Under the pieces are notes generated by a model that worked only from the letters and a program-made list of their open reading frames with translations, was not told the DNA's origin and did no database searches. Shown here piece by piece: positions 2,264-33,667 of a stretch of 64,000 nt of DNA (position 1 is its first letter; every line of letters begins with the position of its first letter). Made by a program: the position numbers and the translations under genes. Source of the DNA: Dehalococcoidia bacterium (GTDB lineage Bacteria; Chloroflexota; Dehalococcoidia; UBA2979); NCBI GenBank assembly GCA_041390685.1, contig JAWKPL010000001.1:556141-620140 (forward strand), in the 5' to 3' direction.

Positions 2264-4540
2264 GTGGTCGCGACAGAGCCGTACAAGGTGGTAGGTACCC
2301 GGCCGGTGCGTCCGGACGGGGTGGACAAGGTGACGGGCCGCGCGATGTACGGCGCGGACGTGAAGATGCCAGGGCTGCTGTACGCGCGGGTGAAGCGGAG
2401 CCCGCACGCGCACGCGGTAATCAAGCGGATTGACACCTCGAAGGCGGAGGCGCTGCCGGGGGTGAAGGCGGTGGTGACGCGGGCGGACTTCCGGACGGCG
2501 CCGGAGGGGCTGGTCGACCTCGGCGAGGGGACGGGCAACCTCAAGTACATGCTCGACAACGTGTGCGCGAGCGACAAGGCGCTGTATCGCGGGCACGCGG
2601 TGGCGGCGGTGGCGGCGACGGACCTGCACATCGCGGAGGACGCGCTCGACCTGATCGAGGTGGAGTACGAGGTGCTGCCGCCGGTGCTGAACGTGCGCGA
2701 CGCGATGACGGAGAGCGCGCCGATCCTGCACGACGACCTGCGTACGGCGGAGATGATCAGCCTGTTCGAGCCGCCCACCCCAGGGGCGGGTCAGGCGACG
2801 AACGTCGCGAGCCACATGCGGCTGGCGCAGGGCGACATGGTGGCGGGGTTCGCGGAGGCGGACATCGTGCTCGAGCGGGAGTTCGAGACCTCGATGGCGC
2901 ACCAGGGGTACATCGAGCCGCACAACGCGACGGTGCTGTGGAACAAGGACGACGACATCACGGTATGGACGAGCACGCAGGGGCCGTTCTCGGTGCGGTC
3001 GGCACTGGCGGGGCTGCTCGACCACCCGGTGTCGAAGATCCGGGTGATGCCGGTGGAGATTGGCGGCGGGTTCGGTGGGAAGATCCCCGTGTACCTCGAG
3101 CCGTTCGCGGCGCTGCTGTCGAAGAAGTCGGGCGCGCCGGTGAAGATGTGGATGACGCGCGAGGAGGTGCTCGAGGCAACGGGGCCGACCTCGGGGACGT
3201 ACATGCGGGCGAAGCTGGGCGCGAAGCGTGACGGCACGATCACGGCGGCGGAGGTGTACCTGGCGTTCGAGGCGGGTGCGTACCCGGGGTCGCCGGTGGG
3301 CGCGGGCGTGATGTGCGCGGTGGCGCCGTACACGATCCCGAACGTGCAGGTGGACGGGTTCGACGTGGTGGTGAACCGGCCGAAGGTGGCAGCGTACCGC
3401 GGGCCGGGCGCGCCGCAGGCGGAGTTCGCGGTGGAGTCGGTCGTCGACGAGATCGCCGAAGAGCTGGGGATGGACCCGATCGACCTGCGGATGAAGAACG
3501 CGGCCGTCGAGGGGACGCGTCGCGCGGATGGGGTCGTCTTCGGACGCATCGGCAACGTGGAGGTACTGCAGGCGATCAAGGACAGCCCGCACTACCGAAG
3601 CGAGCTGGAGGGTGAGAACCGGGGTCGCGGCGTGGCGATCGGGTTCTGGTTCAACGTAGGCTTCGAGTCGGCGGCGTACGCCTCGGTGAACACGGACGGG
3701 ACGGTGGCGTTGACGACGGGGTCACCGGACATCGGAGGGACGCGGGCGGCGCACGCGATGCAACTCGCGGAAGCCCTCGGCATTCCGTACGAGGACGTGA
3801 AGCCGCACGTGGTGGACACGGACTCGATCGGATACACGAACGTGACAGGCGGCAGCCGAACGGCGTTCGCCGGCGGCTGGGCCGCGTACGAGGCAGCGAT
3901 GGACATCGCGCGGCAACTGGAGGCGCGGGCGGCGCACATCTGGGAAGTGGACGCCGGCAGCGTGCGGTACGAGGACGGGAAGCTGTCCGGGCCAGAGGGC
4001 CGGACGATGACGTTCAAGGAGATTGCCGCGCAGCTGCCGCACACCGGCGGCATGGTCCAGGGTCGTGCGAGCGTGAACCCGACGGAGGTTGGGCCCTCGT
4101 TCGCGGGGCACATCTGCGACGTAGAGGTCGACCCGGACACGGGGAAGGTGGAGATCCTGCGCTACACGGCGGTGCAGGACGTAGGGCAGGCGGTGCACCC
4201 CTCGTACGTCGAAGGGCAGATGCAGGGCGGGGCCTCGCAGGGCATCGGGATGGCGCTGAACGAAGAGTACTTCTACGACGAGAACGGCGTGATGCGGAAC
4301 TCGAGCCTGCTCGACTACCGGATGCCGACGGCACTGGACCTGCCGATGATCGACACGATCCTCGTGCAGGTGCCGAGCGAGGGGCACCCGTACGGTCTGC
4401 GCGGGGTGGGCGAGGTGCCGATCGTGCCGCCGATGGCGACCGTGTCGAACGCGATCTACCACGCGACGGGGCTGCGGATGCGGAAGCTTCCCGCCTCGCC
4501 ACGGGTGTTGCTGGACGAGCTGCTGGGGCCGGAGGCGTAA
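2264..4540 (+). CDS. Xanthine dehydrogenase family / aerobic CO-dehydrogenase CoxL-like molybdopterin-binding large subunit (758 aa), orphan
   Basis: Translation 'MVATEPYKVVGTRPVRPDGVDKVTGRAMYGADVK...' has typical Mo-hydroxylase large-subunit signatures throughout. GTG start 6 nt after GGAGG. No FAD or 2Fe-2S subunit genes adjacent. Confidence 0.85.
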   Translation: MVATEPYKVVGTRPVRPDGVDKVTGRAMYGADVKMPGLLYARVKRSPHAHAVIKRIDTSKAEALPGVKAVVTRADFRTAPEGLVDLGEGTGNLKYMLDNVCASDKALYRGHAVAAVAATDLHIAEDALDLIEVEYEVLPPVLNVRDAMTESAPILHDDLRTAEMISLFEPPTPGAGQATNVASHMRLAQGDMVAGFAEADIVLEREFETSMAHQGYIEPHNATVLWNKDDDITVWTSTQGPFSVRSALAGLLDHPVSKIRVMPVEIGGGFGGKIPVYLEPFAALLSKKSGAPVKMWMTREEVLEATGPTSGTYMRAKLGAKRDGTITAAEVYLAFEAGAYPGSPVGAGVMCAVAPYTIPNVQVDGFDVVVNRPKVAAYRGPGAPQAEFAVESVVDEIAEELGMDPIDLRMKNAAVEGTRRADGVVFGRIGNVEVLQAIKDSPHYRSELEGENRGRGVAIGFWFNVGFESAAYASVNTDGTVALTTGSPDIGGTRAAHAMQLAEALGIPYEDVKPHVVDTDSIGYTNVTGGSRTAFAGGWAAYEAAMDIARQLEARAAHIWEVDAGSVRYEDGKLSGPEGRTMTFKEIAAQLPHTGGMVQGRASVNPTEVGPSFAGHICDVEVDPDTGKVEILRYTAVQDVGQAVHPSYVEGQMQGGASQGIGMALNEEYFYDENGVMRNSSLLDYRMPTALDLPMIDTILVQVPSEGHPYGLRGVGEVPIVPPMATVSNAIYHATGLRMRKLPASPRVLLDELLGPEA

Positions 4541-15147: not shown

Positions 15148-15295
15148 GGCGGGCCTCCGGCTGAGGGCACGGTGAGGGTGGGGTGGTCGAACGGGCGGAT
15201 TGTACCTCGGAGTGCTGGTGGCGGCGTCGGGGGCGTCGCAGCGCCGCCTGCCAGGGGCCGTGCGAGGGAGGGGGAGCGGGACTATATTGCCGGCT

Positions 15296-18200
15296 ATGAC
15301 GTCGAGGTTCAGCCGCCCGGTCGTCTGTCCCGATCTGGTGGGGCGGGAGGCAGCGCTGGAGTGGCTGCGGCTGACGTACGCGGGGGCGGCGCGGCGGGGG
15401 TGCGTGGCGCTGGTCTCGGGGGAGGCGGGGATCGGGAAGACGCGGCTTGTCGCGGCGTTCCTCGATGAAGCGGTGGAGGCGGGCCGGTTCACGGCCCGAG
15501 CACGGTTCTTCTCCGATGATGCGGCGCTCCCGTTTTCAGGGATCGCGCGGCTGATCCTCGAGCTGGGGCACACAGAGCCGGAGAGGGGAGGGGTCGTCGG
15601 GCCGGTGGCCGACGAGCTGGCCCGAAACGCGCCGGAGCTGGCGCGTTTGCTCGGCGTGGGCCGCGGGGCGAGCACGGCGCCGGGGGTGGAGGATGCGGAC
15701 CCGGCGCGCCGCCGACGCAACATCGAGCTCGTCGCGCTGCTGCTGGTGGCGAACCTGCCCGCGGGCGGGGCGGTGCTCGCGATCGACGACGTGCACTGGG
15801 CGGACTCGACGAGCCTCGAGACGCTGCTGCACTTCGCGCGAGCGATGCCCGGCGGGTGCCTGCTGGTGCTGACGTACCGCAACGACGAGCAGTCTGGGGC
15901 GTTGCGAGCGCTGCTCGCGGACCTCGACCGGGAGCGGGTCGCCACGGAGATCGAGCTTGGTCCGCTCAGCGCCGGGGAGGTGGAGCGGATGGTGCGCGCG
16001 ACGGTGCAGCTGGATGCGGGCGGGCAACCGTCGCTGATGCGCCTCGTGCACACGCTCAGCGAGGGGAATCCGTTCCTGGTCGAGGAGATCCTGCGGACGG
16101 TGGTCGACGTCGCGGGGGCCGTGCAGCGTGTGCCGTCAGTCGACCTTGCTGCGCTGGACGTGCCGAGGAGCGTCGATGAACTCGTGCGCCGGCGAATGGA
16201 GTCTCTCGCGGATGATGACATCGAGATCGTGCGGCTCGCGGCGATCGCGGGGCAGCGTGTGGACCTGGCGCTGATGGCGGAGCTGACGGGGCACGATGAG
16301 GCGCGTCTGCTCGGAGCGATGCGACGTTGCATCGAAGCGCAGCTCGTGACTGAGGAGGCGTCGGGCGCGTTCGTCTTCCGGCACGCGCTGACGCGCGAGG
16401 CGATCCGATCGCGAGTGCTGCGGCGGGAGCGGCGGGCGATCAGCGCGCGGATCGCCCGCGCGCTGGAGCTCCGGATGTCGGGTGGCGGCGACGACGGTGT
16501 CGAGGAACTAGCGCAGCACTGGTACGAGGCGGAGGAGTGGGAGCAGGCGCACACACACGGTGTACGGGCGGGGCTGCGTGCTCTGGGGCTCGCGGCGCCG
16601 GAGGAAGCGCTCGCGCACTTCGAACGTGCGCTCGCGGCGGGCGAGCAGGCGGCGGTAGGCGACCTCTCGGCCGTGCGTCGTCTGCGAGGAACGGCGTTCG
16701 AGGGCCTGGGGGACTTCGAGGCCGCGCGGCGCGACTACGAGGCGGCAGTGGGCGATGGCGAGCGCGCGGGGAACACGCGCGAAACGTGGCGAGCGCTGCT
16801 GGACCTGGGTCTGCTCTGGGCGGCGCGGGACTACGGGCGGTCGGAGCCGTACTTCCGACGCGCGCTCGCGATCGCGCGTGAGACAGGGGACGCCGAGGCG
16901 ATCGGCCACAGCCTGAACCGGTTGGCGAACTGGTTCTCGAACACCGGGGACGCCGGGAGCGCAGTACGGCTGCACGAGGAGGCGCTCGGAATCTTCCGCC
17001 GCAGGGGAGACCGGGCCGGCGAGGCGCAGACCCTCGACCTGCTCGGCATGGCGTGCACGCAGCAGATGGACTTCGTGGGTGCAGCAAGGCACTACCGGGA
17101 GGCGATCCCGCTGCTGGAGGAGGCGCGAGACCGCGAGACGCTGAGCTCGGCGCTCGCATCGATCCAGATCGGGAGCGGGACGCGCCAGAGCGACATGACG
17201 ACCCCGGCGCTGACGCTCAGGGAGGGGAGCGACTACGGGCGTTACGCGCTGCGCATCGCGCGGGAAGCAGGGCGGCGGCCGTCGGAGGCCTACGCCCTGT
17301 GGCAACTGGCGTTCTCGCTCGGGCCGCAGGGGTTGTACGACGAGGCGCTGGCAGGGGCGGAAGGGGCGCTTCGGATCGCGCAGGAGATCGGCCACACGCA
17401 GTGGGAGATCGCGGCACGTTGCGTCCGCGGAGCGCTGATGACGGACCTCCTCGCGTTCGAGCGCGCTCGGAGATCACTCGAACGGGCAGCGGAGCAGGCG
17501 GCGGCGATGTCCTCGGGACTGTGGCTGGCGCAGGCGCAGGCGTTGCTCATCGACGCGCTGGTGGCGAGCGGGGAGCGCGAGGCCGCGGTCCGCCTGTTCG
17601 AGGCGACCAAGACGGCGGAGCCGGGTGCATTCGGCACGCGTCAGTGTTTCGCGTCCGGTGTGGAGGCGTTGCTGGCGGTCGGAGCGGTCGGACGCGCCTC
17701 GGCCATGCTCGACGCGCTGGAGGCGGCGACGAGCCCAGCGGGGGCCCTGGTGGCATTGCGTCTGGCGTATCTGCGTGGCCGGATCCTGGCCGCATCGGGT
17801 GACGAGACGGCTGCCGTGGGGGAGCTCGAGGCCGCGGCGGCAGCGGCGCGCGTGCAGGGTGACCGTTCGTACGAGTGGCGCCTCGAGTGCGAGCTGGCGG
17901 GGACGCGTGCGGCGGCGGGTGACCCGGAGGGGGCGCGCGCCGCGGGCCGACGGGCGGCAGCCGCGATCGACGAGGTCGCGGCGAAGGTCGGAGACCCGGA
18001 GTTGCAGGCGGGGTTCCTGCGAGGCGCGTACGCGCGTCTTCCAGCTTCGGTGCGACCGAACCGGGCACGTGACGGGTCGGGGCCGCTCACCTCGCGGGAG
18101 AGTGAGATTGCGGAACTGATCGCGGCGGGGCTGACCAACCGCGCCATCGCGGAGCGCCTGGTCCTGAGCCCCCGGACGGTGGAGTCGCACATCGCACACG

Positions 18201-18316
18201 CGATGGGGAAGCTCGGGTTCAGCGCGCGGGCGCAGCTGGCAGGGTGGGTCGTCGAGCGGCGCGGGGCCCAGGCGTCGCGGCGGAGCGGAACGGGCGACGG
18301 CGGGGAAGATCAGTAG
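15296..18316 (+). CDS. LuxR-family transcriptional regulator with N-terminal AAA/STAND ATPase and TPR region (MalT-like, ~1006 aa)
   Basis: Walker A 'GEAGIGKTRL', long helical-repeat middle, C-terminal LuxR HTH 'LTSRESEIAELIAAGLTNRAIAERLVLSPRTVESHI'. ATG at 15296 preceded by a G-rich RBS. Confidence 0.8.
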   Translation: MTSRFSRPVVCPDLVGREAALEWLRLTYAGAARRGCVALVSGEAGIGKTRLVAAFLDEAVEAGRFTARARFFSDDAALPFSGIARLILELGHTEPERGGVVGPVADELARNAPELARLLGVGRGASTAPGVEDADPARRRRNIELVALLLVANLPAGGAVLAIDDVHWADSTSLETLLHFARAMPGGCLLVLTYRNDEQSGALRALLADLDRERVATEIELGPLSAGEVERMVRATVQLDAGGQPSLMRLVHTLSEGNPFLVEEILRTVVDVAGAVQRVPSVDLAALDVPRSVDELVRRRMESLADDDIEIVRLAAIAGQRVDLALMAELTGHDEARLLGAMRRCIEAQLVTEEASGAFVFRHALTREAIRSRVLRRERRAISARIARALELRMSGGGDDGVEELAQHWYEAEEWEQAHTHGVRAGLRALGLAAPEEALAHFERALAAGEQAAVGDLSAVRRLRGTAFEGLGDFEAARRDYEAAVGDGERAGNTRETWRALLDLGLLWAARDYGRSEPYFRRALAIARETGDAEAIGHSLNRLANWFSNTGDAGSAVRLHEEALGIFRRRGDRAGEAQTLDLLGMACTQQMDFVGAARHYREAIPLLEEARDRETLSSALASIQIGSGTRQSDMTTPALTLREGSDYGRYALRIAREAGRRPSEAYALWQLAFSLGPQGLYDEALAGAEGALRIAQEIGHTQWEIAARCVRGALMTDLLAFERARRSLERAAEQAAAMSSGLWLAQAQALLIDALVASGEREAAVRLFEATKTAEPGAFGTRQCFASGVEALLAVGAVGRASAMLDALEAATSPAGALVALRLAYLRGRILAASGDETAAVGELEAAAAAARVQGDRSYEWRLECELAGTRAAAGDPEGARAAGRRAAAAIDEVAAKVGDPELQAGFLRGAYARLPASVRPNRARDGSGPLTSRESEIAELIAAGLTNRAIAERLVLSPRTVESHIAHAMGKLGFSARAQLAGWVVERRGAQASRRSGTGDGGEDQ

Positions 18317-21061: not shown

Positions 21062-21613
21062 TCAAGGGACGAGCGCGGCCCATCGCTGGGCGAGGCCTGC
21101 CGGGGGGATCGGCGGCAGCGGGTCGTATCGAACACCAGCTTCAGCGGCGAGCCGCGCGGCGGTGCGCTCCGCTTCGTCCCAGCGGGAGGCGCAGACCTCG
21201 CGCCAGTGTGCGGAGCCGTGACGTGCGACCCATGCCTCGTAGTCCGCGAGCCAGCGGTACGCCTGCGCGAGCCGACCGGGTGCCGGCTCTTCCTCGGGAC
21301 CCTGAAGCGCCGCCCTCGGATCCGGAAACGCACCGCCCAATCGGGCGCCGGGACGCGCATGGGGAAGGCGGCCAGTACGCGGGAGGCTGATGGCGCCTGA
21401 GGCGTCGACGAGGAGCAGTCCGCCGCTCCAGAGCAGCACGGCAAGCCGACCGACCTCGTGCCAGTAGTAGCGGTTGTGTTCACCGGTGTCCCAGTGACCG
21501 CGGTGCAAGCCGTACCTGGTCAAGAGGTTCCCATCCGGGTGGCGGATGTCCTGCCCCCACAGCCAGCACTGCGCGTCCATTAGCTGGGAGCCGGTGAGTT
21601 CATTCGCCACCAC
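21062..21613 (-). CDS. Hypothetical Trp-rich protein
   Basis: ORF 21062..21643. GTG at 'VVANEL' preceded by AGGAGGAG. No family recognised. Confidence 0.4.
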   Translation of the reverse strand: MVANELTGSQLMDAQCWLWGQDIRHPDGNLLTRYGLHRGHWDTGEHNRYYWHEVGRLAVLLWSGGLLLVDASGAISLPRTGRLPHARPGARLGGAFPDPRAALQGPEEEPAPGRLAQAYRWLADYEAWVARHGSAHWREVCASRWDEAERTAARLAAEAGVRYDPLPPIPPAGLAQRWAALVP

Positions 21614-21786
21614 GGCGTGACTCCTCCTGCACATGGATGGCACCGCGCACCGCGCCGTGCAGTGTAGGGTCAGTACGCGCGCGCTGGCGAGGGAACGTGG
21701 TGGCGACGTCCGGCGTCGAAGCGGATGCCCGGGCCCCTCGGGAGCCCGGGCATCCGCTTCTGGTTGGGCGGGAACGTCCGACGCGG

Positions 21787-22563
21787 CTAGACGCGCTTTG
21801 TCATGGCGCGGCCGACTCCCGTGGCAGCGATGGCGATTCCCACACCGATGATCGCGAGTATGCCAGCAGGAGTGCGCGCGATCAGACCCGCGTTGCCGGT
21901 GCGCGGCGGCACGGGCTGCGCAGGCTGGGGTTGCGCAGGCTGAGGCTGCGCGGCCTTCGGCGCTTCGGCGGCCTGCGCTCCACTGTTTTCTGAGTGTGCT
22001 CCGCCTTCGCCGTGGACGAGAGCTTCAATCGCTGTCATGGCGTCCTGGGAAGAGACGCGCTTGTCGCGCCACTCGTGCACGAAATGGTCGATCTCCTCGA
22101 GGAGGCCGGCGCGCTGGGCCGCGGGTACTTCGTGGACGAGGTGGTCGATCTCAGCCATCGCCTCGTCAGCGGGGAGCGTGCCCTCGTCCCATTCGTGGAC
22201 GACGTGGTCAATGGACTGAATCGCCGCCGCCGCCTCGTCATCGTCATGATGTGCTCCGCCCTCGCCGTGGACGAGGGCTTCGATCGCGGTCATCGCGTCT
22301 TCTGATGAGACGCGCCCGTCACGCCATTCGTGCACGAAGTGGTCGATCTCCTCGAGGAGGCCGGCGCGCTGGGCCGCGGGTACTTCGTGGACGAGGTGGT
22401 CGATCTCGGCCATCGCTTCGTCAGCGGGGAGCGTGCCCTCGTCCCATTCGTGGACGACGTGGTCGATGGACTGGATCGCCGCTTCCTGAGCGGACACGGG
22501 GCCACCTGGTGCCAGCCCGAGCAACGCTACCACTGCCGCCGCGACCAGGAGTTGTCGCCTCAA
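21787..22563 (-). CDS. Secreted histidine-motif tandem-repeat protein with PQ-rich linker and C-terminal sorting-signal-like tail
   Basis: TTG start 9 nt after GGAGG gives a textbook signal peptide 'MRRQLLVAAAVVALLGLAPGGPVSA|QE'. Two 85-aa near-identical repeats each carry three 'IDHxVHEW/V' units plus 'VHGEGGAHHDDDE'. Then 'QPQPAQPQPAQP', then 'PPRTG'-hydrophobic-'KRV'. Confidence 0.7.
   Translation of the reverse strand: MRRQLLVAAAVVALLGLAPGGPVSAQEAAIQSIDHVVHEWDEGTLPADEAMAEIDHLVHEVPAAQRAGLLEEIDHFVHEWRDGRVSSEDAMTAIEALVHGEGGAHHDDDEAAAAIQSIDHVVHEWDEGTLPADEAMAEIDHLVHEVPAAQRAGLLEEIDHFVHEWRDKRVSSQDAMTAIEALVHGEGGAHSENSGAQAAEAPKAAQPQPAQPQPAQPVPPRTGNAGLIARTPAGILAIIGVGIAIAATGVGRAMTKRV
21973..22482. 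repeat. Direct tandem duplication, 2 x ~255 bp, inside the His-repeat gene
   Basis: The two protein repeats differ at only a few residues. Off-frame track ORFs 22035..22247 and 22290..22505 give near-identical peptides offset by 255 nt, so the repeat is also near-identical at the DNA level. Confidence 0.7.
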
Positions 22564-22695
22564 GTCTCTTGCCTCCAATACGCCTCTTGGCGCCGGGTGT
22601 TCAGCGGCCCGACGCGTCCGCAACCTCCTTATAAGTGAGTCTTGGTCTCAGTTCAAGGGGATGAGATGCCGTATCACCCGCGGGAAACGACCTCG

Positions 22696-23715
22696 TCAGC
22701 GGAGGTGAGCGACGAGGCTGCGCATGTTGAACCGGATGAGGTCGAGGTAGGTGGGGGCATCCTCGGTGAAGGCGTCGGTCATCAGGACGCCGACGGTGAT
22801 GCCCTGGTCGCGCGCGAGCTGGTCAAGGATCGACGACTCGTACTGGGGTTCTCGGAAGACCGCCGGGACGCCGGCCTGCTCCACGCGGTCGTAGAGGGAC
22901 GCCAGGGCGGCAACGGAGGTCTCGCCTTCCCCATCGGATGGGAGGATGGAGCCGAGGACCTCGAACCCGAAACGCGCGGCCAGGTAGCCGTACGCGTCGT
23001 GCTGGACGACCAGGACGCGGCGAGCGGGCGGGATGGTCTGGATGGCGGCTTCCATCTCCGCGTCGAGGGCGCGGACCTGGGCGGCGTACCGTTCGCCGTT
23101 CGCGCGATAGAGGTCTTCGCCTTCCGGGTCGACCGACGCGAGGCCGGTGGCGATGACGGGGATCAGCTCGATCACGCGTTGAGGATCGAGCCAGAAGTGG
23201 GGATCTCCGCCCCGGTAGTCGTGGGTGTGGTCGCCGTGATCGACGACCAGGTCGCGGATGATGACATCGATGGAGTCGGTGACGACGAGGGTCGGAAGGG
23301 CGGCTTCGCGCGCGGCGCGGCGCCAGGCCGTCCGCTCCGCGAACGCCTCGAAGTGGCCGCCCACGGTGATGAGGTAGTCCGCCTCGACGAGACGCACAAG
23401 ATCCTGCGGCGTGACCTCGTAGTCGTGGGGGTTGCTGCCGGGAGGGGTGACGGACCAGACCTCGATGCGTCCTCGGCCGATGTTCTGGACGATGTCGGCG
23501 AGCACGGCGAATGAGACTGCGACCAGCTTTTGGTCGCCACCGTGAGTCGATGACCCGGCGTCCTGAGCGGCGGCCGGCTGACCGGCGGACGGAGCATCGG
23601 AGGCGGGTGAGGCAGGGCCGGACGAGGCGCCGCCAGAGCCACACGCAGCGAGGACGGACGCGACGCAGAGCATCGCGCAGACGGCACCCCACTGAAGCAG
23701 CCGCCGGACCAACAT
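22696..23715 (-). CDS. ZnuA/AdcA-like metal ABC transporter substrate-binding lipoprotein (339 aa), orphan
   Basis: Lipobox 'VLAACGSG', cluster-9 binding-protein fold, and the His/Asp-rich loop 'DHGDHTHDYRGGDPHFW' typical of zinc-specific ZnuA. The N-terminal 280 aa of the track ORF are Arg-rich read-through. No permease or ATPase adjacent. Confidence 0.75.
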   Translation of the reverse strand: MLVRRLLQWGAVCAMLCVASVLAACGSGGASSGPASPASDAPSAGQPAAAQDAGSSTHGGDQKLVAVSFAVLADIVQNIGRGRIEVWSVTPPGSNPHDYEVTPQDLVRLVEADYLITVGGHFEAFAERTAWRRAAREAALPTLVVTDSIDVIIRDLVVDHGDHTHDYRGGDPHFWLDPQRVIELIPVIATGLASVDPEGEDLYRANGERYAAQVRALDAEMEAAIQTIPPARRVLVVQHDAYGYLAARFGFEVLGSILPSDGEGETSVAALASLYDRVEQAGVPAVFREPQYESSILDQLARDQGITVGVLMTDAFTEDAPTYLDLIRFNMRSLVAHLR

Positions 23716-23822
23716 CTCGCTCCCCCTCGGCGCCAATGATACCGAGTATCGACTTTTTCGGACAAGCGGCGACGCCGGGAGCGACGGCCCGGGAGCCAGG
23801 CGGGTCGACCGGGAGCAGGAGG

Positions 23823-26202: not shown

Positions 26203-27270
26203 ATGGTCACCGCCACTGAAACACCGCGCGTGGGCGAGGCCGATGCGGACGTCACGAGGCCGGAACCGCTGCTCGCTGTGCGGAACCTCGTGACCGAGTT
26301 CAGGACATCGGGCGGGTGGCTGCGCGCGGTCAACGACGTCTCGTTCGAGGTGGAACGCAGCGAGGTGCTGGCGATCCTCGGGGAGTCGGGGTCAGGGAAG
26401 AGCGCGCTGCTCCGCACGATCCTGGGGATTCAACCACGGACCGCGCGCGTCTCGGGACAGGTGCTGATCGAGGGTCGCGACGTGCTCGCGATGGCAGCAG
26501 CGGAGCGCGAGGTGGTCCGGGGATCGCAGGTGTCGATGATCTTCCAGGACCCGCTGACGGCGCTCGACCCTCTGTTCACGGTCGAACAGCAGATCGTGGA
26601 GACCTTGCGCCGGCATACGGCGCTCACGAAGGCGGCGGCGCGCGAGCGCGCACTCGAACTGCTCAACCTCGTGCAGATCCCGTCACCGGAACGACGCCTT
26701 GAGGCGTACCCGTTCGAGCTCAGCGGGGGGATGCGGCAGCGGGTGGTGATCGCGATCGCGCTGGCCTGCAATCCGCGTTTGCTGCTCGCGGACGAACCGA
26801 CCACGGCGCTCGACGTCACGGTGCAGGCGCGAGTGCTCTCGCTGCTGGCGGACCTCCAACGGCGGCTCGGGATGGGCGTGGTGCTCGTCACGCACGACCT
26901 CACGGTGGCCGCGTCCGTGGCGGACCGGGTGGCGGTGATGTACGCGGGGCGGATCGTCGAGCGCGGGCCAATCCGGGAGATCGTCCGGCGGCCGTCTCAC
27001 CCTTATACGCGCGGCCTGCTGGACGCGAACATCCGACCGGGGCAGCGCGAACGGCCGGAGGCGATCGCGGGCGCGCCGCCGAACCTGGCACACCTGTCCG
27101 GGGGGTGCGCCTTCGCTCCTCGATGTCCGGTATCAGTCGACGGCTGCTTCGAAGAGCAGCCCCAGTTCGTGCTGGTCGGCCCGGACCACGCGGCTCGCTG
27201 CCTGATCGCAGAGGCCGACGTGGTCGGGGCCGGTGGCGGAGCAACAGCGAAAGGACTCCAGGGTGGCTGA
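26203..27270 (+). CDS. Peptide/nickel ABC transporter ATP-binding protein (DppD/OppD-like)
   Basis: Walker A 'GESGSGKS', signature 'LSGGMRQR', C-terminal oligopeptide-transporter extension. Confidence 0.85.
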   Translation: MVTATETPRVGEADADVTRPEPLLAVRNLVTEFRTSGGWLRAVNDVSFEVERSEVLAILGESGSGKSALLRTILGIQPRTARVSGQVLIEGRDVLAMAAAEREVVRGSQVSMIFQDPLTALDPLFTVEQQIVETLRRHTALTKAAARERALELLNLVQIPSPERRLEAYPFELSGGMRQRVVIAIALACNPRLLLADEPTTALDVTVQARVLSLLADLQRRLGMGVVLVTHDLTVAASVADRVAVMYAGRIVERGPIREIVRRPSHPYTRGLLDANIRPGQRERPEAIAGAPPNLAHLSGGCAFAPRCPVSVDGCFEEQPQFVLVGPDHAARCLIAEADVVGAGGGATAKGLQGG

Positions 27271-28942
27271 TTTCTTGAAACGGCGGTGGGCGCTCGGGTT
27301 ACAGACGGGAGCGGCGACGGTCATCGGGCTGCTGCTGCTGGCCTGTGGCGCGTCGGACACGGGCGAGGGCGGCGCCGGTGGCGCGGCGCAGTCCGAGAGC
27401 GGCGACGCGACGGCGGCCACTGACCAGTCCGGCAGCGGCGGGACGCTCCGCATCGCGATGTCCGCGGGGAACATCCCGATCCCGGACCAGTTCCCGACCG
27501 AGGGCGGCGAAGGGCGGCGCTTTGTCGGCGTCAACGTGTACGACGCCCTCGTGAACTGGGACACCGACCAGGGTGACGCGCCGCCGGGTGTGGTGCCGGG
27601 ACTGGCGGAGTCGTGGAGCCGCTCCGAGGACAACCTCACGTGGACGTTCAAGCTCCGGCAGGGGGTGACGTTCCACGACGGCACGGCGTTCGATGCGGAC
27701 GCGGTGATGTTCGCGTTCGACCGGCTGATGAAGAAGGACTTCGAGTTCTACTCGGAGACGCAGCGGGGATCCGGGGCGAGCAACATCGCGGCGATCGCGA
27801 GCTACGAGAAGATCGACGCCCAGACGGTGGCGTTCACGACGAACAAGCCGTGGTCGTTCTTCCTATACGACCTGGCGTTGATCAACATTCCCAGCCCGAC
27901 CGCCATACGGACGTACGGCAACAAGGAGTACCCGCGCCACGCGAGCGGGACCGGGCCCTTCAAGATCGACAAGTACGTCGACGGCCAGGTGATGGAACTG
28001 GTCCCGAACACGGCGTACTGGGGCCGCGTCCCGAAGCTCGAGCGGCTGATCTTGCTGCCGATGCCGGAGCCCGCGACTCGCCTCGCCGCACTGCAGTCGG
28101 GGCAGGTCGACTGGGCGGAAGTGCCGCCGCCGGATGCGATCGAGCAGCTTCGGGCGTCCGGCTACAACGTGCTCCTGAAGTCCTACCCGCACGCGATCTA
28201 CTACGGGTTCAACACGTATCGGGCGCCGTTCGACGACCCGAAGGTCCGCCAGGCGGTCGCCTACGGCATCGACCGCGAGGGGATGGTCGCGATCATCCAG
28301 GGCGCGGGCGGGCCGGCGACGCAGCTCATGTACGAGGGCAACCCGTGGCGTGACCCGACGTTCGAGGGCTACAGCTACGACCCGGACAAGGCGCGCGCAC
28401 TGCTGGCCGAGGCGGGCAAGTCGAGCGGCCTGAAGATCACGGTCGCGTACCCGACCGGCGGCTCCGGGAACATGTGGCCCGGCCCGATGAACGAGAAGTT
28501 CCAGCAGGACATGCGTGACATCGGGATCCAGGTGGACCTGGTGCCCCTCGAATGGAACACGGTAATTGCACTGTACCGAGCGGGGCTGGCGTCACCGGAC
28601 TACAGCAAGTACGACGCGTTCTACTTCTCGCCCAACACGCAGGCGCCGCTGCTCGCGTTCGCCTCGTACCTCACGGAGCGCATCCCGCCGGCGGGGTGCT
28701 GCAACGCCACGGGTTGGTCGAGCGCGGACGCGGACGCGCTCTTCAAGCAGGCGGCAAACACGTTCGACGACGCGGCGCGGGACCAGCTACTGGCGCAGTT
28801 CGAGGGACTGATGATGCGCGATGCGCCCATCGCCCCGGTCGTCCATGACCTGAACCTGCGCGTCCTCTCGCCCAAGGTCCGCGGGTGGATCCAGCCGCAG
28901 TCCTGGTGGGGCGACTTCACCAGCGTGTGGATGAAGGACTGA
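27263..28942 (+). CDS. ABC transporter substrate-binding protein, family 5 (DppA/OppA-like), lipoprotein
   Basis: 'LLLLACGASD' lipobox and SBP_bac_5-like sequence. GTG at 27263 after AAGGA is the start chosen; 27233 is an alternative. Confidence 0.8.
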   Translation: MADFLKRRWALGLQTGAATVIGLLLLACGASDTGEGGAGGAAQSESGDATAATDQSGSGGTLRIAMSAGNIPIPDQFPTEGGEGRRFVGVNVYDALVNWDTDQGDAPPGVVPGLAESWSRSEDNLTWTFKLRQGVTFHDGTAFDADAVMFAFDRLMKKDFEFYSETQRGSGASNIAAIASYEKIDAQTVAFTTNKPWSFFLYDLALINIPSPTAIRTYGNKEYPRHASGTGPFKIDKYVDGQVMELVPNTAYWGRVPKLERLILLPMPEPATRLAALQSGQVDWAEVPPPDAIEQLRASGYNVLLKSYPHAIYYGFNTYRAPFDDPKVRQAVAYGIDREGMVAIIQGAGGPATQLMYEGNPWRDPTFEGYSYDPDKARALLAEAGKSSGLKITVAYPTGGSGNMWPGPMNEKFQQDMRDIGIQVDLVPLEWNTVIALYRAGLASPDYSKYDAFYFSPNTQAPLLAFASYLTERIPPAGCCNATGWSSADADALFKQAANTFDDAARDQLLAQFEGLMMRDAPIAPVVHDLNLRVLSPKVRGWIQPQSWWGDFTSVWMKD

Positions 28943-28945
28943 GCG

Positions 28946-29890
28946 ATGCTCGTGATGCTCGTGCGGCGCCTGGCGATGGTCGTACCCACGCTGCTCGGTG
29001 TCTCGATCGTGGTGTTCCTACTGATGAGCGTCCTGCCAGGGGATCCCCTGGCAGGGCTGCTCGCCCAGGACGCGAGCGCGGCGGACCGGGCGGCGCTCGA
29101 GCAGAGCATGGGCCTGGACGACCCGTTGCCGGTGCGTTACGTGCACTGGCTCGGGGATGCGCTGACGGGAGACTTCGGGTACTCCCCGTACCGGCGGCGC
29201 GACGTTGCCGACCTGCTGGGGACGGCCTTTCGGAACACGTTGCAGCTGGCGGTGGCCTCGGCGGCGGTCGGCATCGGACTGGGGGTGGCTCTCGGGACGA
29301 TCGCGGCGGTGCACCGGGGACGTCTCCTCGACCGACTGGTCTCCGTGGTCGCGATGACGGGGATCAGCGTGCCTTCGTACTGGGTGGCGATCCTGCTGAT
29401 CATCGTGTTCTCCGCGAATCTGCACTGGCTGCCCGCCGGAGGCATGAGCAGCGGGGGCGGGGGTCTCCTCGACACGTTGAAGCACCTCGTGATGCCGGCG
29501 TTCGCCAGCGCGTTCGTATCGATCGGCGTCACGGCACGCATGATGCGCGCCAGCCTGCTGGAGACGTACGGGCAGGACTTCGTCGACACGCTGCGGGCGA
29601 AGGGGCTGACGGGCCGGCAGATCCTCTGGCACGTGGCGAAGAACGCGGCGTCGCCGGTGCTGACCGTCGCCGGCCTCCAGGTCGGGTTCCTGCTCGGGGG
29701 ATCCGTGTTGATCGAGACGATCTTCTCGTGGCCGGGCCTTGGTCAGCTCATCTTCCAGGCGATCAGCGCGCGCGACTTCCGAGTGATCCAGGCCGGGATC
29801 CTCGTCGTGGCCGTGACGTTCGTCCTCGTCAACCTCGTCGTGGACCTGCTGCAGCTGGTGATCGACCCGCGGCTGCGGAAGGCCGCCTGA
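28946..29890 (+). CDS. ABC transporter permease (DppB-like)
   Basis: 314 aa, 6 TM segments, BPD-transporter signature region. Confidence 0.85.
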   Translation: MLVMLVRRLAMVVPTLLGVSIVVFLLMSVLPGDPLAGLLAQDASAADRAALEQSMGLDDPLPVRYVHWLGDALTGDFGYSPYRRRDVADLLGTAFRNTLQLAVASAAVGIGLGVALGTIAAVHRGRLLDRLVSVVAMTGISVPSYWVAILLIIVFSANLHWLPAGGMSSGGGGLLDTLKHLVMPAFASAFVSIGVTARMMRASLLETYGQDFVDTLRAKGLTGRQILWHVAKNAASPVLTVAGLQVGFLLGGSVLIETIFSWPGLGQLIFQAISARDFRVIQAGILVVAVTFVLVNLVVDLLQLVIDPRLRKAA

Positions 29891-29922
29891 ACCAGCCGTT
29901 GCTGGACGGAAGGAGTCGCAGC

Positions 29923-30825
29923 ATGGTCGCCATCACCACGCCTACCCGCGCGAAGCGGCCGGCGGACGAGACGCTGGTCGCGCCGCGCTCGTACCTCGGG
30001 GAAGTGCGAGTCCGCTTCATGACGAAGCGGGCGGGCGTCGGGGCGCTGGGCGTGCTCGCGGTCATCGCCGTGACGGCTGTGGCTGCCCCGTTGCTGACGC
30101 CACACGACCCTCTCGCCGGCCGCGCGACGGAGCGGCTGCTCCCGATCGGGGCGGCCGGACACCTCCTCGGGACTGACGAGCAGGGCCGGGACATGCTGAC
30201 GCGTCTGCTGTACGCGGGGCGGCTGTCGCTGGTGACGGGGACGATGCCCGTCCTGATCGCGACGATCCTGGGCACAGCGATCGGCGCCACCGCGGGCTAC
30301 CTGCGGGGGCCGCTGGGCGCGGTGTTGATGCGCTCAATGGACATGCTGTACGCGTTCCCGGCGGTCATGCTCGCAATCGCGGTCGCGGCGTCGCTTGGGC
30401 CAGGGGTGAACAACTCGATCCTCGCGATCAGCATCGTGTTCATCCCGCCGATCGCGCGGGTCGCGGAGGCCGCCACGCGACGCGTTGTGCTCCTCGAATA
30501 CATCGAAGCGGCGCGGCTGAGCGGAGCAAGCACGGCGCGGATCATCGTGTCGCAGGTGCTGGCGAACATCTTCAACCCGATCTTCGTGTACGCGTCTGGG
30601 CTGGTGGGGCTGAGCATCGTGATCGCCTCGGGCCTCAGCTTCCTGGGGCTGGGGGCGGCCCCGCCGACGCCGGAGTGGGGATACATGCTCAACAGCCTGC
30701 GAGGCGCGATTTACACGCAGCCGTGGGTCGCGGTCCTGCCCGGGCTCTTCATCTTCGCCACATCGATGGCCTGCAACGTGGTGAGCGACGCGCTACGCGA
30801 CGCGCTCGACGTGAAGGACGCGTAG
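29923..30825 (+). CDS. ABC transporter permease (DppC-like)
   Basis: C-terminal 300 aa of ORF 28885..30825. ATG 7 nt after AAGGAG. Confidence 0.8.
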   Translation: MVAITTPTRAKRPADETLVAPRSYLGEVRVRFMTKRAGVGALGVLAVIAVTAVAAPLLTPHDPLAGRATERLLPIGAAGHLLGTDEQGRDMLTRLLYAGRLSLVTGTMPVLIATILGTAIGATAGYLRGPLGAVLMRSMDMLYAFPAVMLAIAVAASLGPGVNNSILAISIVFIPPIARVAEAATRRVVLLEYIEAARLSGASTARIIVSQVLANIFNPIFVYASGLVGLSIVIASGLSFLGLGAAPPTPEWGYMLNSLRGAIYTQPWVAVLPGLFIFATSMACNVVSDALRDALDVKDA

Positions 30826-30865
30826 CCGACGGCTGAGCCGAGGTGAGCAACGGAAGGAAGTGGCC

Positions 30866-31972
30866 ATGGCAACGCCGACAGGGACGCCCGTATCGACCTC
30901 GACCACGTGGGGAAGCACCACCGGGTTCAGCACCCAGTCGCCGCGTGAGCTCGTGCATGCGGATGTGCTACTGCGAGTGGCCGGGCTGTCGAAGGACTTC
31001 CCGGTACGCCTCGGGGTGCGCGCGCGGGGAGTGCTCTCGGCCGTCGACAACGTGTCCTTCGCGGTGCGCGCGGGCACGACGGTTGGCATCGTCGGGGAGT
31101 CCGGATGTGGGAAGTCGACGACCGCACGCCTGATCCTCGGCCTGATCGAGCCTGACCGCGGGTCGATCGAGTTCGAGGGGGTGGACATCCGCACCCTGGA
31201 CCGGGTGCAACGGCGAGCGGTGAAACGCAACATGCAGATGGTCTTTCAGGATCCGTACTCGGCGCTCAATCCGCGCATGTCGGTCGGGGCGAGCATCGCC
31301 TTCCCCATGGCCGTGCATGGCATGCCGCGCAAGGAGCAGCGCGAGCGAACGGCGATGCTCCTGCAGCAGGTCGGACTGCATCCGAACCACGCCTCGTACT
31401 ACCCGCACCAGATGAGCGGCGGACAGCGGCAGCGGGTGAACATCGCCCGCGCGCTGGCGCTGGAGCCGCGGCTCGTGATTGCGGACGAGGCGGTGTCCGC
31501 GCTCGACAAGTCGGTGCAGGCACAGGTGCTGAACCTGCTCACCGACCTGCAGGAGCGTCTGGGGCTGACCTATCTGTTCATCAGTCACGACCTGAACGTC
31601 GTGCAGTACGTCGCGGACCGGGTGATCGTCATGTACCTCGGACAGGTGGTCGAAGACTGTCCGTCGGACGAGCTGTACGCCCGTCCGCTGCACCCGTACA
31701 CGCAGGCGCTGCTGGCCTCGATCCCGGACATCGACCCGGACCGTCCGGCGCCCGCCGGCCTCGAGGGGGACGTCCCGAGCCCGCTCAACCCCCCCTCGGG
31801 GTGCCGGTTCCGGACGCGGTGCCCCGCGGCGATGGCGGTGTGCGGCGAGGAGCGGCCGGAGCTGCTCGAGGCGGAGCCGGGCCACCTCGTGGCGTGCCAC
31901 CTGTTCGACCGCGCGTCGCCGGCACGGGCGGCGCCGGAGCCAGCGCAGGGAGTCGCCATGGCCAACGCGTGA
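30866..31972 (+). CDS. Peptide ABC transporter ATP-binding protein (DppF/OppF-like)
   Basis: Walker A 'GESGCGKST', signature 'MSGGQRQR'. ATG after GGAAGGAAG. Confidence 0.85.
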   Translation: MATPTGTPVSTSTTWGSTTGFSTQSPRELVHADVLLRVAGLSKDFPVRLGVRARGVLSAVDNVSFAVRAGTTVGIVGESGCGKSTTARLILGLIEPDRGSIEFEGVDIRTLDRVQRRAVKRNMQMVFQDPYSALNPRMSVGASIAFPMAVHGMPRKEQRERTAMLLQQVGLHPNHASYYPHQMSGGQRQRVNIARALALEPRLVIADEAVSALDKSVQAQVLNLLTDLQERLGLTYLFISHDLNVVQYVADRVIVMYLGQVVEDCPSDELYARPLHPYTQALLASIPDIDPDRPAPAGLEGDVPSPLNPPSGCRFRTRCPAAMAVCGEERPELLEAEPGHLVACHLFDRASPARAAPEPAQGVAMANA

Positions 31973-32027: not shown

Positions 32028-32219
32028 ATGCCAGCACCCACCGACACCGAAGGAACGGTACGAACGCTGCTCGCGAGCGCGGGCCTGTCGCTGACTGACG
32101 AGCAGGTGGCGATGTACGTCCGCGTGTACCCGCGGCTGCGCGCCTCGGCGGACGCGCTCTTCGCCATGCCCGAGGTCCGCTACGAGCAGCCAGCGGTGAT
32201 CTTCCCGGCGGCGGTCTGA
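32028..32219 (+). CDS. Small AtzG/GatC-like amidase-associated protein (63 aa)
   Basis: ATG 6 nt after GAAGGGAG. 'LSLTDEQVAMYVRVYPRLRASADALFAMPEV' resembles the small partner subunits found next to amidase-signature enzymes. Confidence 0.5.
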   Translation: MPAPTDTEGTVRTLLASAGLSLTDEQVAMYVRVYPRLRASADALFAMPEVRYEQPAVIFPAAV

Positions 32220-32254
32220 ACAACCAGCACGGCCACTCGACAGGAGAACTCACG

Positions 32255-33667
32255 ATGACCTTTCCGCTGACCATCGAAGCCACGGCCGCGGCGCTGCGCG
32301 CGGGCGAATTCACGAGCCTGGAGCTGACGCGGGCGCTGCTCGCGAAGGCGAAGGCGCTCAACCCCACGCTGGGCGCGTTCATCGAGATCACGGAAGAGAC
32401 CGCGCTGTCCGAGGCGGTGGCGGCGGACGCGAAGTTCGCGGCCGGAATCGACCTCGGGCCGCTGCAGGGGATCCCGTACGGCGTGAAGGACATCATCGCG
32501 ACGAAGGACGCGCCCACGACTGCGAACGGGCTGATCCTCGACCGATCGTGGGGGGCGGGGTACGACGCGACTGTCGTGGCGAAGCTGCGGGCGGCGGGCG
32601 CGGTGCTGATGGGCAAGCTGGTCCTGAACGAGTTCGCGATCGGCATGCCGGATGCGAGCAAACCGTTTCCGATGCCGCAGAACCCGTGGGACCTCGAGCG
32701 GAGCGCCTCCGGATCGAGTTCGGGGACGGGGATCGCTGTATCCACGGGCCTGGTGCTCGGCGGTCTGGGGACGGACACCGGCGGATCGACGCGGGGGCCC
32801 TCGTCGTGGAACGGGCACAGCGGGATGAAGCAGACGTTCGGGCGGGTCTCCAAGTACGGGTGCGTCCCACTGGGCTACAGCCTCGACCATATCAACCCAA
32901 TGGCGCGCAGCGCGTATGACTGCGCGCTCATGCTGACCGTGATGGCAGGCTACGACTCACTCGACCCTACGACCGTCGACGTGCCGGTCCCGGACTACGC
33001 GGCGGAGCTCACGGGCAGGATGGACGGACTGCGAGTCGGCGTGCCGATGGCGTACTTCTTCGACGCCCCCGACCTGGAGCCGGAGGTCCGCGCGGCCGTA
33101 CTGGCCGCGGTCCGGACGCTCGAGGAAGCGGGGGCCGTGGTCACGGAGGTGGCGCTGCCGCACGCGGGTGAGGCGAAGGACGCGAACATGATCATCATGT
33201 ACAGCGAGGCCTTCGCGTACCACCGTGACGACCTGGCCGCGCGGTACGACGTCTACGGACGATATACTTCGGAGGTACTCACGCGGGGCGCGCTGCTCGG
33301 GGCCTCGGACTACGTGCAGGCGCAGCGGTTCCGCTCGTACTGGAAGCGGGCGGTGGCCGATGCGATGGCGGACGTGGACGTCCTGATCACGCCGACCTCG
33401 ATCAGCCCGGCGCCGAAGCGGTCGGAGATGAGCCCGGAGAAGCAACTCGGCGGGTCCAGCTTCACGAGCCAGTGGAACCTGACGGGACTGCCGGCGATGG
33501 CGATCCCGTGCGGGTTCAGCGAGGGTGGGCTGCCGCTCTCGATGCAGGTCATCGGGAAGCCGTTCGCCGAGGGCACGGTGTTCCAGGTCGGGCATGCGTA
33601 TCAGCAGCTGACGGAGTATCACCTGCGCGTGCCCGCGATCGCGGTAGAGGCTGCAGCAGCGGCGTAG
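32255..33667 (+). CDS. Amidase-signature family amidase (GatA-like)
   Basis: 'GGSSSGTG' signature and a Ser-cisSer-Lys triad context. Confidence 0.85.
   Translation: MTFPLTIEATAAALRAGEFTSLELTRALLAKAKALNPTLGAFIEITEETALSEAVAADAKFAAGIDLGPLQGIPYGVKDIIATKDAPTTANGLILDRSWGAGYDATVVAKLRAAGAVLMGKLVLNEFAIGMPDASKPFPMPQNPWDLERSASGSSSGTGIAVSTGLVLGGLGTDTGGSTRGPSSWNGHSGMKQTFGRVSKYGCVPLGYSLDHINPMARSAYDCALMLTVMAGYDSLDPTTVDVPVPDYAAELTGRMDGLRVGVPMAYFFDAPDLEPEVRAAVLAAVRTLEEAGAVVTEVALPHAGEAKDANMIIMYSEAFAYHRDDLAARYDVYGRYTSEVLTRGALLGASDYVQAQRFRSYWKRAVADAMADVDVLITPTSISPAPKRSEMSPEKQLGGSSFTSQWNLTGLPAMAIPCGFSEGGLPLSMQVIGKPFAEGTVFQVGHAYQQLTEYHLRVPAIAVEAAAAA

Follow-up and report, generated by a model that had tools for sequence, protein, structure and literature searches.

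The present study concerns two adjacent genes in a 64,000-nucleotide stretch of Dehalococcoidia bacterium assembly GCA_041390685.1 (contig JAWKPL010000001.1, positions 556,141 to 620,140), hereafter the window, which has a G+C content of ∼69%. Both genes lie on the minus strand where a preliminary description, made from the letters of the DNA, had placed them. A gene for a metal-binding lipoprotein of the AztC/ZnuA type (22696-23715), hereafter the binding protein, is followed by a gap of 132 nucleotides (nt) and then by the gene (21787-22563) for an acidic, histidine-bearing protein built of repeated helical hairpins, hereafter the repeat protein. The features of the two genes, with the evidence for each, are as follows.

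22696-23715, minus strand: gene for an AztC/ZnuA-type cluster A-I metal-binding lipoprotein of 339 residues (Pfam ZnuA; alignment to PDB 5w56)
23218-23241, minus strand: three-histidine loop DHGDHTHD, residues 159-166, immediately before ligand His173; counterpart of the AztC D-loop (5w56 alignment)
21787-22563, minus strand: repeat-protein gene, 258 residues with a TTG start, coordinates including the stop; predicted secreted acidic histidine-bearing helical-hairpin protein with a C-terminal anchor (sequence; homologs)
22489-22563, minus strand: signal peptide, residues 1-25, predicted cleavage between VSA and QE (by inspection)
22234-22485, minus strand: module 1, residues 27-110, a pair of helical hairpins folding by prediction into a four-helix bundle, with the tail GEGGAHHDDDE (AlphaFold2; hairpin profile)
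21979-22230, minus strand: module 2, residues 112-195, repeats module 1 in tandem and closes with GEGGAHSENSG (module alignment; AlphaFold2)
21790-21978, minus strand: C-terminal anchor of the repeat protein (sequence; homologs), made up of the next four features
21910-21978, minus strand: Pro/Gln-rich linker
21886-21909, minus strand: sorting-signal-like PPRTGNAG
21811-21861, minus strand: transmembrane helix, a 17-residue hydrophobic segment
21790-21810, minus strand: basic tail RAMTKRV
21718-21760, minus strand: GC-rich 20-bp inverted repeat after the stop codon, 95% complementary with a 3-nt loop, terminator-like but lacking a T tract

The binding protein starts at the ATG at 23715; a long Ser/Pro/Ala tether and a lipobox (LAAC, with Cys25) are present. 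It scores 229.8 bits against Pfam ZnuA (PF01297), whose cut-off is 29, over profile positions 1-261 of 263 (5e-68), and its top NCBIfam model is the AztC equivalog NF040870 (218.3 bits, under the curated cut-off of 350), with MntC models ranking second. The best PDB relative is AztC of Paracoccus denitrificans (5w56), to which all four ligand positions align, giving His97, His173, His239, and Asp314 as the predicted metal ligands. These are the His/His/His/Asp ligands of zinc-type proteins, and relative to Synechocystis MntC the binding protein has a His where the manganese-type Glu stands. The zinc-type His/Asp loop reported in the preliminary description is present as DHGDHTHDYRGGDPHFW at residues 159-175, and its first part, DHGDH[TV]HD, recurs at two related loci (L001 and L006) and in a Pseudonocardia locus (L007), where the gene after the binding-protein gene is AztD-like (209 bits against the AztD model). 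In AztC, the three D-loop histidines are essential for taking zinc from AztD (PMC7463823). The binding protein of the window has no insert of the hairpin type described below. As was first reported, no permease or ATPase gene accompanies it: tblastn with relatives as queries found no ZnuB, ZnuC, AztA, AztB, or AztD in the 64 kb, and the only ATPases matched were those of an Opp/Dpp-type transporter at 26.2-32 kb.

The repeat protein probably starts at the TTG at 22563, which has GGAGG 8 nt upstream and which gives the 132-nt gap (∼130 nt as first estimated). The reading frame is open from 22623, but a 278-residue open reading frame (ORF) beginning there was rejected because that start falls inside the conserved promoter. 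The N-terminus, MRRQLLVAAAVVALLGLAPGGPVSA followed by QEA, resembles a signal peptide by inspection alone, in keeping with the earlier call of a signal-peptide protein, and all homologs have an equivalent N-terminus. The six IDHxVHE units and two IEALVHGEGGAH acidic-His tails of the preliminary description are there, set in two 85-residue tandem modules. The proposed 28-residue repeat unit does not hold: the actual unit is a helical hairpin of ∼40 residues present in four copies, each module being an internal hairpin duplication. The modules agree at 77 of 85 residues. Their DNA has 32 differences in 255 nt, almost all of which, within the helical part, are synonymous third-position changes. 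Thus, the reading frame has been under purifying selection and is a real coding sequence, not a chance ORF.

AlphaFold2 predicts four helices in each module and leaves the His/Asp tails disordered. With an alignment, module 1 was modeled at a predicted local distance difference test score (pLDDT) of 88 and a predicted TM-score of 0.77, with helices at 2-15, 21-34, 43-55, and 61-73, and a two-module model made from the single sequence reached a pLDDT of 88.5. The two modules are accordingly predicted to form two four-helix bundles. The repeat region is strongly acidic: of its 165 residues, 40 are Asp/Glu, 7 are Lys/Arg, and 17 are His. Behind it lies the C-terminal anchor that the preliminary description had missed. 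Homologs have the motif P[AP]x[TSA]G[NGS][AG]G at this position, one of them (P0011) has a canonical LPKTG, and no NCBIfam LPXTG anchor model matches; attachment would be by the transmembrane helix or by a sortase-type mechanism. A consensus terminator scan did not call the inverted repeat at 21718-21760.

Searches of Pfam, NCBIfam, and the PDB by sequence returned nothing above threshold for the repeat protein, the PDB gave no fold match, and the full-length protein, used as query against a word index of 5.8 billion proteins, retrieved no relative. An exhaustive phmmer search of 1.84 billion representatives gave 23 matches, 17 of which were kept as relatives, and a profile search through the word index added few members. 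The other six (P0018-P0023) were rejected since their repeats contain Cys and have only an HxWDEG turn in common with the hairpins; these are giant surface proteins of 957-2506 residues with H[ESD]WDEG.VTTEPTC repeats of ∼40 residues. A search of full-text literature with the hairpin peptide motif returned optical character recognition noise only. Judged from these comparisons, the repeat protein is a member of an undescribed, unnamed family, and the view that it is no Pht homolog and belongs to no described family was borne out, the HxxHxH motif also being absent.

The 17 relatives fall into two architectures. Stand-alone anchored members (136-220 residues, mostly 153-183) consist of a signal peptide, one module, a His/Asp tail, the anchor motif, a hydrophobic segment, and a basic tail, and those with a source name are hypothetical proteins of Chloroflexota metagenome-assembled genomes (MAGs). 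In the second architecture (P0001, P0009, P0010, P0013-P0017, and, in addition to the 17, L093-L095; several in znuACB operons), one to six hairpins are inserted amid His/Asp-rich linkers in the His-rich loop just before the DPH[IF]W ligand of zinc-type binding proteins, one of them from ‘Liberiplasma.’ These fused relatives have classic His-rich loops and are annotated, and score best, as zinc binding proteins. Since members are annotated either as hypothetical or as plain zinc-binding proteins, the hairpin module is invisible to current annotation. A metagenome scan with window-derived patterns gave no match, and a narrower pattern gave three further fused low-G+C loci, all in znuA-znuC-znuB operons. 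Two near-identical low-G+C zinc-binding proteins (L094 4542-5792 and L095 107-1216) have two hairpins and one hairpin, respectively, a copy-number polymorphism.

Among 46 hairpins, little or no variation is seen at D8, H12, E15-D16-G17, E22, E26, I28, E/D29, and H33. The first His of HxxHE, proposed earlier as the motif, occurs in only 18 of the 46, and the conservation pattern instead gives a family signature of [DE]xxxH on each helix together with a WEDG turn. The pattern of ∼40 residues, L..ID.(I/V)VH.WEDG.(I/L)(T/S)AE.A(L/M)E.IE.L(I/V)H, occurs in pairs, and the window protein fits it. The four hairpins of the window score ∼82 bits each against a hidden Markov model (HMM) of the hairpin that was built from the window and L001 hairpins themselves, and independent members score 30-71 bits. 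By heptad reasoning, the conserved polar residues would sit outside the hydrophobic core. The turn H-E-W-E-D-G-x-[IL]-[TS]-A-E-E (window residues 38-50, ∼22414-22452) gives repeated subthreshold matches to the SHOCT-like family PF22746 and to exonuclease VII small subunit models; homologs reach 21.4-25.1 bits over 17 residues with PF22746, under its gathering cut-off of 27, and the window repeat protein has no match to it at E ≤ 0.001. The turn also resembles positions 5-12 of an EF-hand loop (DG-x-[IL]-[TS]-x-x-E), a likeness that was set aside: EF-hand positions 1 and 3 would be His and Trp, inside helix A in the model, and no EF-hand model matches the whole repeat protein at E 0.01.

The family keeps company with zinc-uptake genes. 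Eight of the nine stand-alone members with genomic context adjoin znuA or znuB-type (ABC-3 permease) genes. The closest binding protein, from a Dehalococcoidia MAG (L001, 60% identity), has a one-module homolog of the repeat protein directly downstream, and the other arrangements are these.

P0005 (L084-L086) and P0008 (L088): final gene of a fur-family-znuA-znuC-znuB operon
P0007 (L087): after a znuA; znuBC not adjacent
P0012 (L092) and the L090 member: after an ABC-3 permease gene
P0003 (L082) and P0004 (L083): divergent from a znuA
P0002 (L081): no such neighbor on its 1.8-kb contig

The resemblance to the adcAII-phtD layout, with an orphan binding-protein gene, thus holds in the window but is not a rule of the family, as the homologs in L084 and L088 close complete operons. 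Over the aligned C-terminal part, the binding proteins beside the homologs in L084 and L087 share no more than 36-39% identity with that of the window, and they have hairpin inserts of their own; hence, the association is not simply inherited synteny. The inserts of the L084 binding protein (2562-4049, P0015/P0030), which stands beside a free hairpin protein, are degenerate and have lost most of their His, and the binding proteins in L087 (4401-5876) and L088 (2598-4070), of ∼490 residues, have an apparently similar insert. Such coexisting cis and trans hairpin copies may interact. Both lines of evidence, conserved neighborhood and domain fusion, connect the hairpin module with zinc uptake of the cluster A-I type.

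The two genes of the window are also joined by a palindrome, TGA[GT]A[CT]-N3-[GA]T[CA]TCA, of which the window holds three copies, all at the promoters of these genes.

23736-23765, minus strand: promoter-like site of the binding-protein gene, −35 TTGTCC (23760-23765), 18 nt, −10 TATCAT (23736-23741) (promoter scan)
23737-23751, minus strand: operator CGATACTCGGTATCA, one mismatch, overlapping that promoter (pattern match)
22628-22676, minus strand: the repeat-protein gene's own promoter with two operator sites (sequence; pattern match), made up of the next four features
22662-22676, minus strand: operator site 1, TGATACGGCATCTCA
22651-22656, minus strand: −35 TTGAAC
22636-22650, minus strand: operator site 2, TGAGACCAAGACTCA
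22628-22633, minus strand: −10 TATAAG

With one mismatch allowed, the pattern TGAKAYNNNRTMTCA has exactly three matches in the 64 kb against a chance expectation of 0.49, and none of 100 shuffles reached three. The two-site layout recurs upstream of the homologs in L001, L081, L084, L087, L088, and L092, so that a two-site promoter is kept in seven loci. Across the 80 binding-protein loci, the pattern occurs 0.30 times per kb within 600 bp upstream of where the binding protein matched and 0.020 times per kb elsewhere, a 15-fold enrichment, and several of the more distant matches fall upstream of an accessory gene that precedes the binding-protein gene. The palindrome was seen, among other places, in L017 (9818-9832), L026 (9851-9865 and 9880-9894), L038, L040, L050, L052, L057, L078, and L087. 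Fur-family genes (PF01475) flank the operons in L084 and L088, and ORFs judged Fur-like from their sequence precede the binding-protein gene in L010 and L046. Because the palindrome is enriched upstream of related binding-protein operons, some of them beside Fur-family genes, it is probably the Zur box of these organisms, as far as comparison of sequences can tell. The suggestion that a Zur box be sought at 22564-22695 and 23716-23822 turned up two palindromes in the first region and one in the second, Zur being the likely regulator. Our literature search found no published Zur motif for the Chloroflexota, a paper that mentions both Zur and Chloroflexi giving none for that phylum. Zur-type repression means expression when zinc is scarce.

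Collectively, the recurrent adjacency, the fusion into binding-protein loops, and the common operator support the conclusion that the two window genes are a functional pair. At a probability of roughly 60%, we propose that the pair is induced by zinc starvation and that the hairpin protein serves the binding protein as a zinc antenna or chaperone at the surface. The pair would then be a zinc-starvation module of a monoderm Chloroflexota-like bacterium, in which one Fur-family regulator, most likely Zur, represses both genes through the promoter palindrome; under zinc limitation both promoters would be derepressed and two tethered proteins exported. The first of these, the AztC-like binding protein, would be tethered by its lipid and would combine a His3Asp site of high affinity with a three-His loop that acts as acceptor. 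The second, the hairpin protein, would stay at the surface through its C-terminal anchor, of transmembrane or sortase type, which is set off by a Pro/Gln spacer. Its acidic bundles, with [DE]xxxH pairs on heptad positions outside the core, and its flexible His/Asp tails would offer many predicted exposed Zn(II) sites of low to moderate affinity and fast exchange, which may concentrate zinc at the envelope. Zinc would be handed from the hairpin protein to the loop of the binding protein and then to the buried His3Asp site, and the binding protein would deliver it to a ZnuBC/AztAB-type permease encoded elsewhere.

Several observations weigh against this proposal. Among close relatives of the binding protein, the majority are paired with accessory proteins of other kinds. 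The regulator is assigned from adjacency alone, and the 64-kb window contains no Fur-family gene. The hairpins have only two conserved His each, the first His of HxxHE being variable, and the exposure of their side chains is deduced from heptad reasoning alone. A gene for UreG, a nickel chaperone, lies upstream of the pair in L001 (2892-4016; 236 bits, above the cut-off, with a C-terminal extension of ∼170 residues), and His3Asp sites, for example the one in TroA, bind manganese too. Finally, P0015-type inserts have lost most of their His in operons that also hold a free hairpin copy, and this poverty in His suggests that the hairpin fold may serve another role, such as docking.

That last point leads to the alternative that survives best, although it is still unlikely, namely that the hairpin is mainly a docking or scaffolding element that tethers or clusters binding proteins at the wall, or dimerizes with the inserts, with the His secondary or regulatory. 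The P0015-type inserts keep the hairpin signature with few His, free and inserted copies occur together in L084 and L088, and the subthreshold likeness is to SHOCT-like and XseB hairpins, which are of an oligomerization type; moreover, a single hairpin, as in L095, could not form a four-helix bundle alone. However, the binding protein of the window offers no hairpin insert with which to dock, the most conserved residues outside the core are carboxylates and His and not a hydrophobic interface, and the fused hairpins always lie between classic His/Asp-rich linkers.

Rather unlikely, too, is that the system handles a metal other than zinc (manganese, nickel, cobalt, or iron) under Mur, Nur, or Fur in place of Zur. 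The ability of TroA-type sites to bind manganese as well as zinc (TroA is discussed in PMC7463823), the second rank of the MntC models, the UreG gene of L001, and the unselective nature of exposed His/carboxylate sites would all fit. Against them stand the third ligand of the binding protein, a His as in AztC and ZnuA and not the Glu of manganese-type proteins, the position of AztC as both best family and best PDB match, and the zinc annotation and scores of the fused relatives. In addition, an ORF recognized from its sequence as a COG0523/CobW-like GTPase lies beside a related accessory/binding-protein operon (L004 6971-8179, minus strand). COG0523/CobW-like GTPases are typical of zinc-starvation regulons.

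We consider it improbable that the repeat protein is instead an extracytoplasmic buffer or a sponge for detoxification, which would sequester divalent metal present in excess at the envelope, in the manner of SmbP, ZraP, or Hpn, and would be no helper of uptake. Its extreme acidity and His content, the variable hairpin copy number, and the predicted exposed sites, which suggest low-affinity, high-capacity binding, would suit such a sponge. However, operator and neighborhood are those of uptake genes (znuA, znuC, and znuB, headed by a Fur-family gene), the hairpins also occur in fusion with binding proteins for uptake, the surroundings of the pair showed no genes for efflux or resistance, and repression of the Zur type would place expression at zinc scarcity and not at excess. 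Gene layout and His-rich repeats suggest that the repeat protein might be a distant branch of the streptococcal Pht family, and the locus a true adcAII-pht homolog, but sequence, motif, and predicted fold refute this, as no Pfam or NCBIfam Pht model matches, HxxHxH is absent, the predicted fold is all-helical, and the PDB offers neither a sequence nor a fold match.

Other genes stand near the pair and its relatives. In the window, a 193-residue ORF downstream (21062-21643, minus strand) has no family match and a lower G+C content at third codon positions (0.78); it appeared similar to an ORF in L002, which tblastn failed to confirm. A gene 3.5 kb away (15200-18316, plus strand) encodes a 1038-residue AAA_16-TPR-LuxR-type regulator. 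The Opp/Dpp-type ATP-binding cassette (ABC) transporter is complete (26203-31972; two ATPases with oligo_HPY, a family-5 binding protein, and two permeases) and is followed by an amidase gene (32099-33667), and matches to the operator palindrome are absent near both. In L001, a small ORF for a secreted Cys-rich protein (4051-4302, CLCPIC) lies just upstream of the binding-protein/hairpin pair. In Thermomicrobiales-like MAGs, the binding-protein gene is adjoined by a conserved family of secreted proteins of 450-550 residues, some with an N-terminal His-rich stretch, located as follows.

L002 8287-9714; L004 8447-9990; L006 2493-3863; L008 4593-5957
L017 10832-12322 and 12223-13821; L003 8313-10181, minus strand; L009 4146-5735, minus strand

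This family matches no Pfam or NCBIfam model. Its identification as AztD was rejected, as it matches neither the AztD model nor the AztD-like protein of L007, and it may be another accessory family of binding proteins.

Accessory proteins that take up zinc outside the cell and feed it to ABC binding proteins (Pht, ZinT, AztD, and ZrgA) are few, and most work on them concerns pathogens or Paracoccus. Judging from sequence comparison, the hairpin proteins are probably an undescribed and unrelated family in this known kind of system, and the locus points to a very small, easily expressed helical module in a zinc-capture role. More broadly, and with tentative confidence a little short of even, the hairpin can be viewed as a portable folded zinc-antenna module that would have arisen in evolution as a structured replacement for or extension of the disordered His-rich loop, which acts in cis in several phyla and also in trans in the Chloroflexota, which would be an extracytoplasmic metallochaperone family independent of Pht, ZinT, AztD, and ZrgA, and which together with the palindrome would define a Chloroflexota Zur regulon. 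Being inserted in low-GC binding-protein loops and free in the Chloroflexota, the module provides a natural cis/trans pair for the study of protein-to-protein zinc movement, and its copy number, from one to six, is a built-in dosage series. The palindrome is, in turn, a candidate Zur box for a phylum that has none in the literature searched.

Among known structures and systems, one faint likeness is to the SHOCT-like (PF22746) and XseB hairpins, where the turn WEDGxL(T/S)AEEA gives repeated weak matches; these remain below the cut-off (21-25 bits versus 27), span ∼17 residues, and lack the [DE]xxxH pairs. SmbP of Nitrosomonas europaea is a small secreted helical protein, built of repeats and rich in His, that binds several divalent metal ions. 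By that description the repeat protein resembles it, but the repeats of SmbP are of seven residues, and its links are to copper and metal stress rather than to a zinc-uptake operon. The fused hairpins occupy the position of the His-rich loop of ZnuA-type proteins, have the same His/Asp/Glu chemistry, and are interleaved with His-rich linkers; the classic loop, however, is disordered and acts in cis, whereas the hairpin is folded, occurs in one to six copies, and in the Chloroflexota is also a separate anchored protein. ZinT and the ZinT-like domain of AdcA, which has its own NCBIfam model, represent an accessory zinc-binding module that, like the hairpin module, occurs free as well as in fusion with a cluster A-I binding protein. 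Unlike the hairpins, which are helical and inserted inside the His-rich loop, ZinT has a lipocalin-like β-fold and is fused C-terminally.

The AdcAII-PhtD system of Streptococcus pneumoniae pairs an orphan zinc-binding lipoprotein with a His-rich surface protein that probably supplies it with zinc, and is under zinc-responsive repression. The window offers the same juxtaposition of an orphan zinc-type lipoprotein gene and a His-rich surface-protein gene by analogy only, as its repeat protein lacks HxxHxH triads, is predicted to be all-helical, has a C-terminal anchor, comes from a different phylum, and shows no homology. AdcAII is covered in PMC8416893. A further parallel is the AztC-AztD pair of the AztABCD system of P. 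denitrificans, which has the same His/His/His/Asp ligands, the same three-His loop before the second ligand, and a secreted accessory protein encoded beside the binding protein, and in which the AztC loop receives zinc from AztD (PMC7463823, PMC6689063). The two differ in that AztD is a β-propeller and the accessory protein of the window a small helical-hairpin bundle, predicted all-helical and not matched by the AztD model NF038015, in that the window has no AztD or AztAB genes, and in that its binding protein reaches 218 of the 350 bits of the equivalog cut-off. Thus, the arrangement is analogous to AdcAII-PhtD, ZnuA-ZinT, and AztC-AztD, and the repeat protein, failing the tests of motif, model, and fold, is not homologous to Pht, ZinT, or AztD. 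Together with the AztD-like protein of Pseudonocardia and the Thermomicrobiales family, these comparisons suggest that the slot beside AztC-like genes is filled by different accessory proteins in different lineages.

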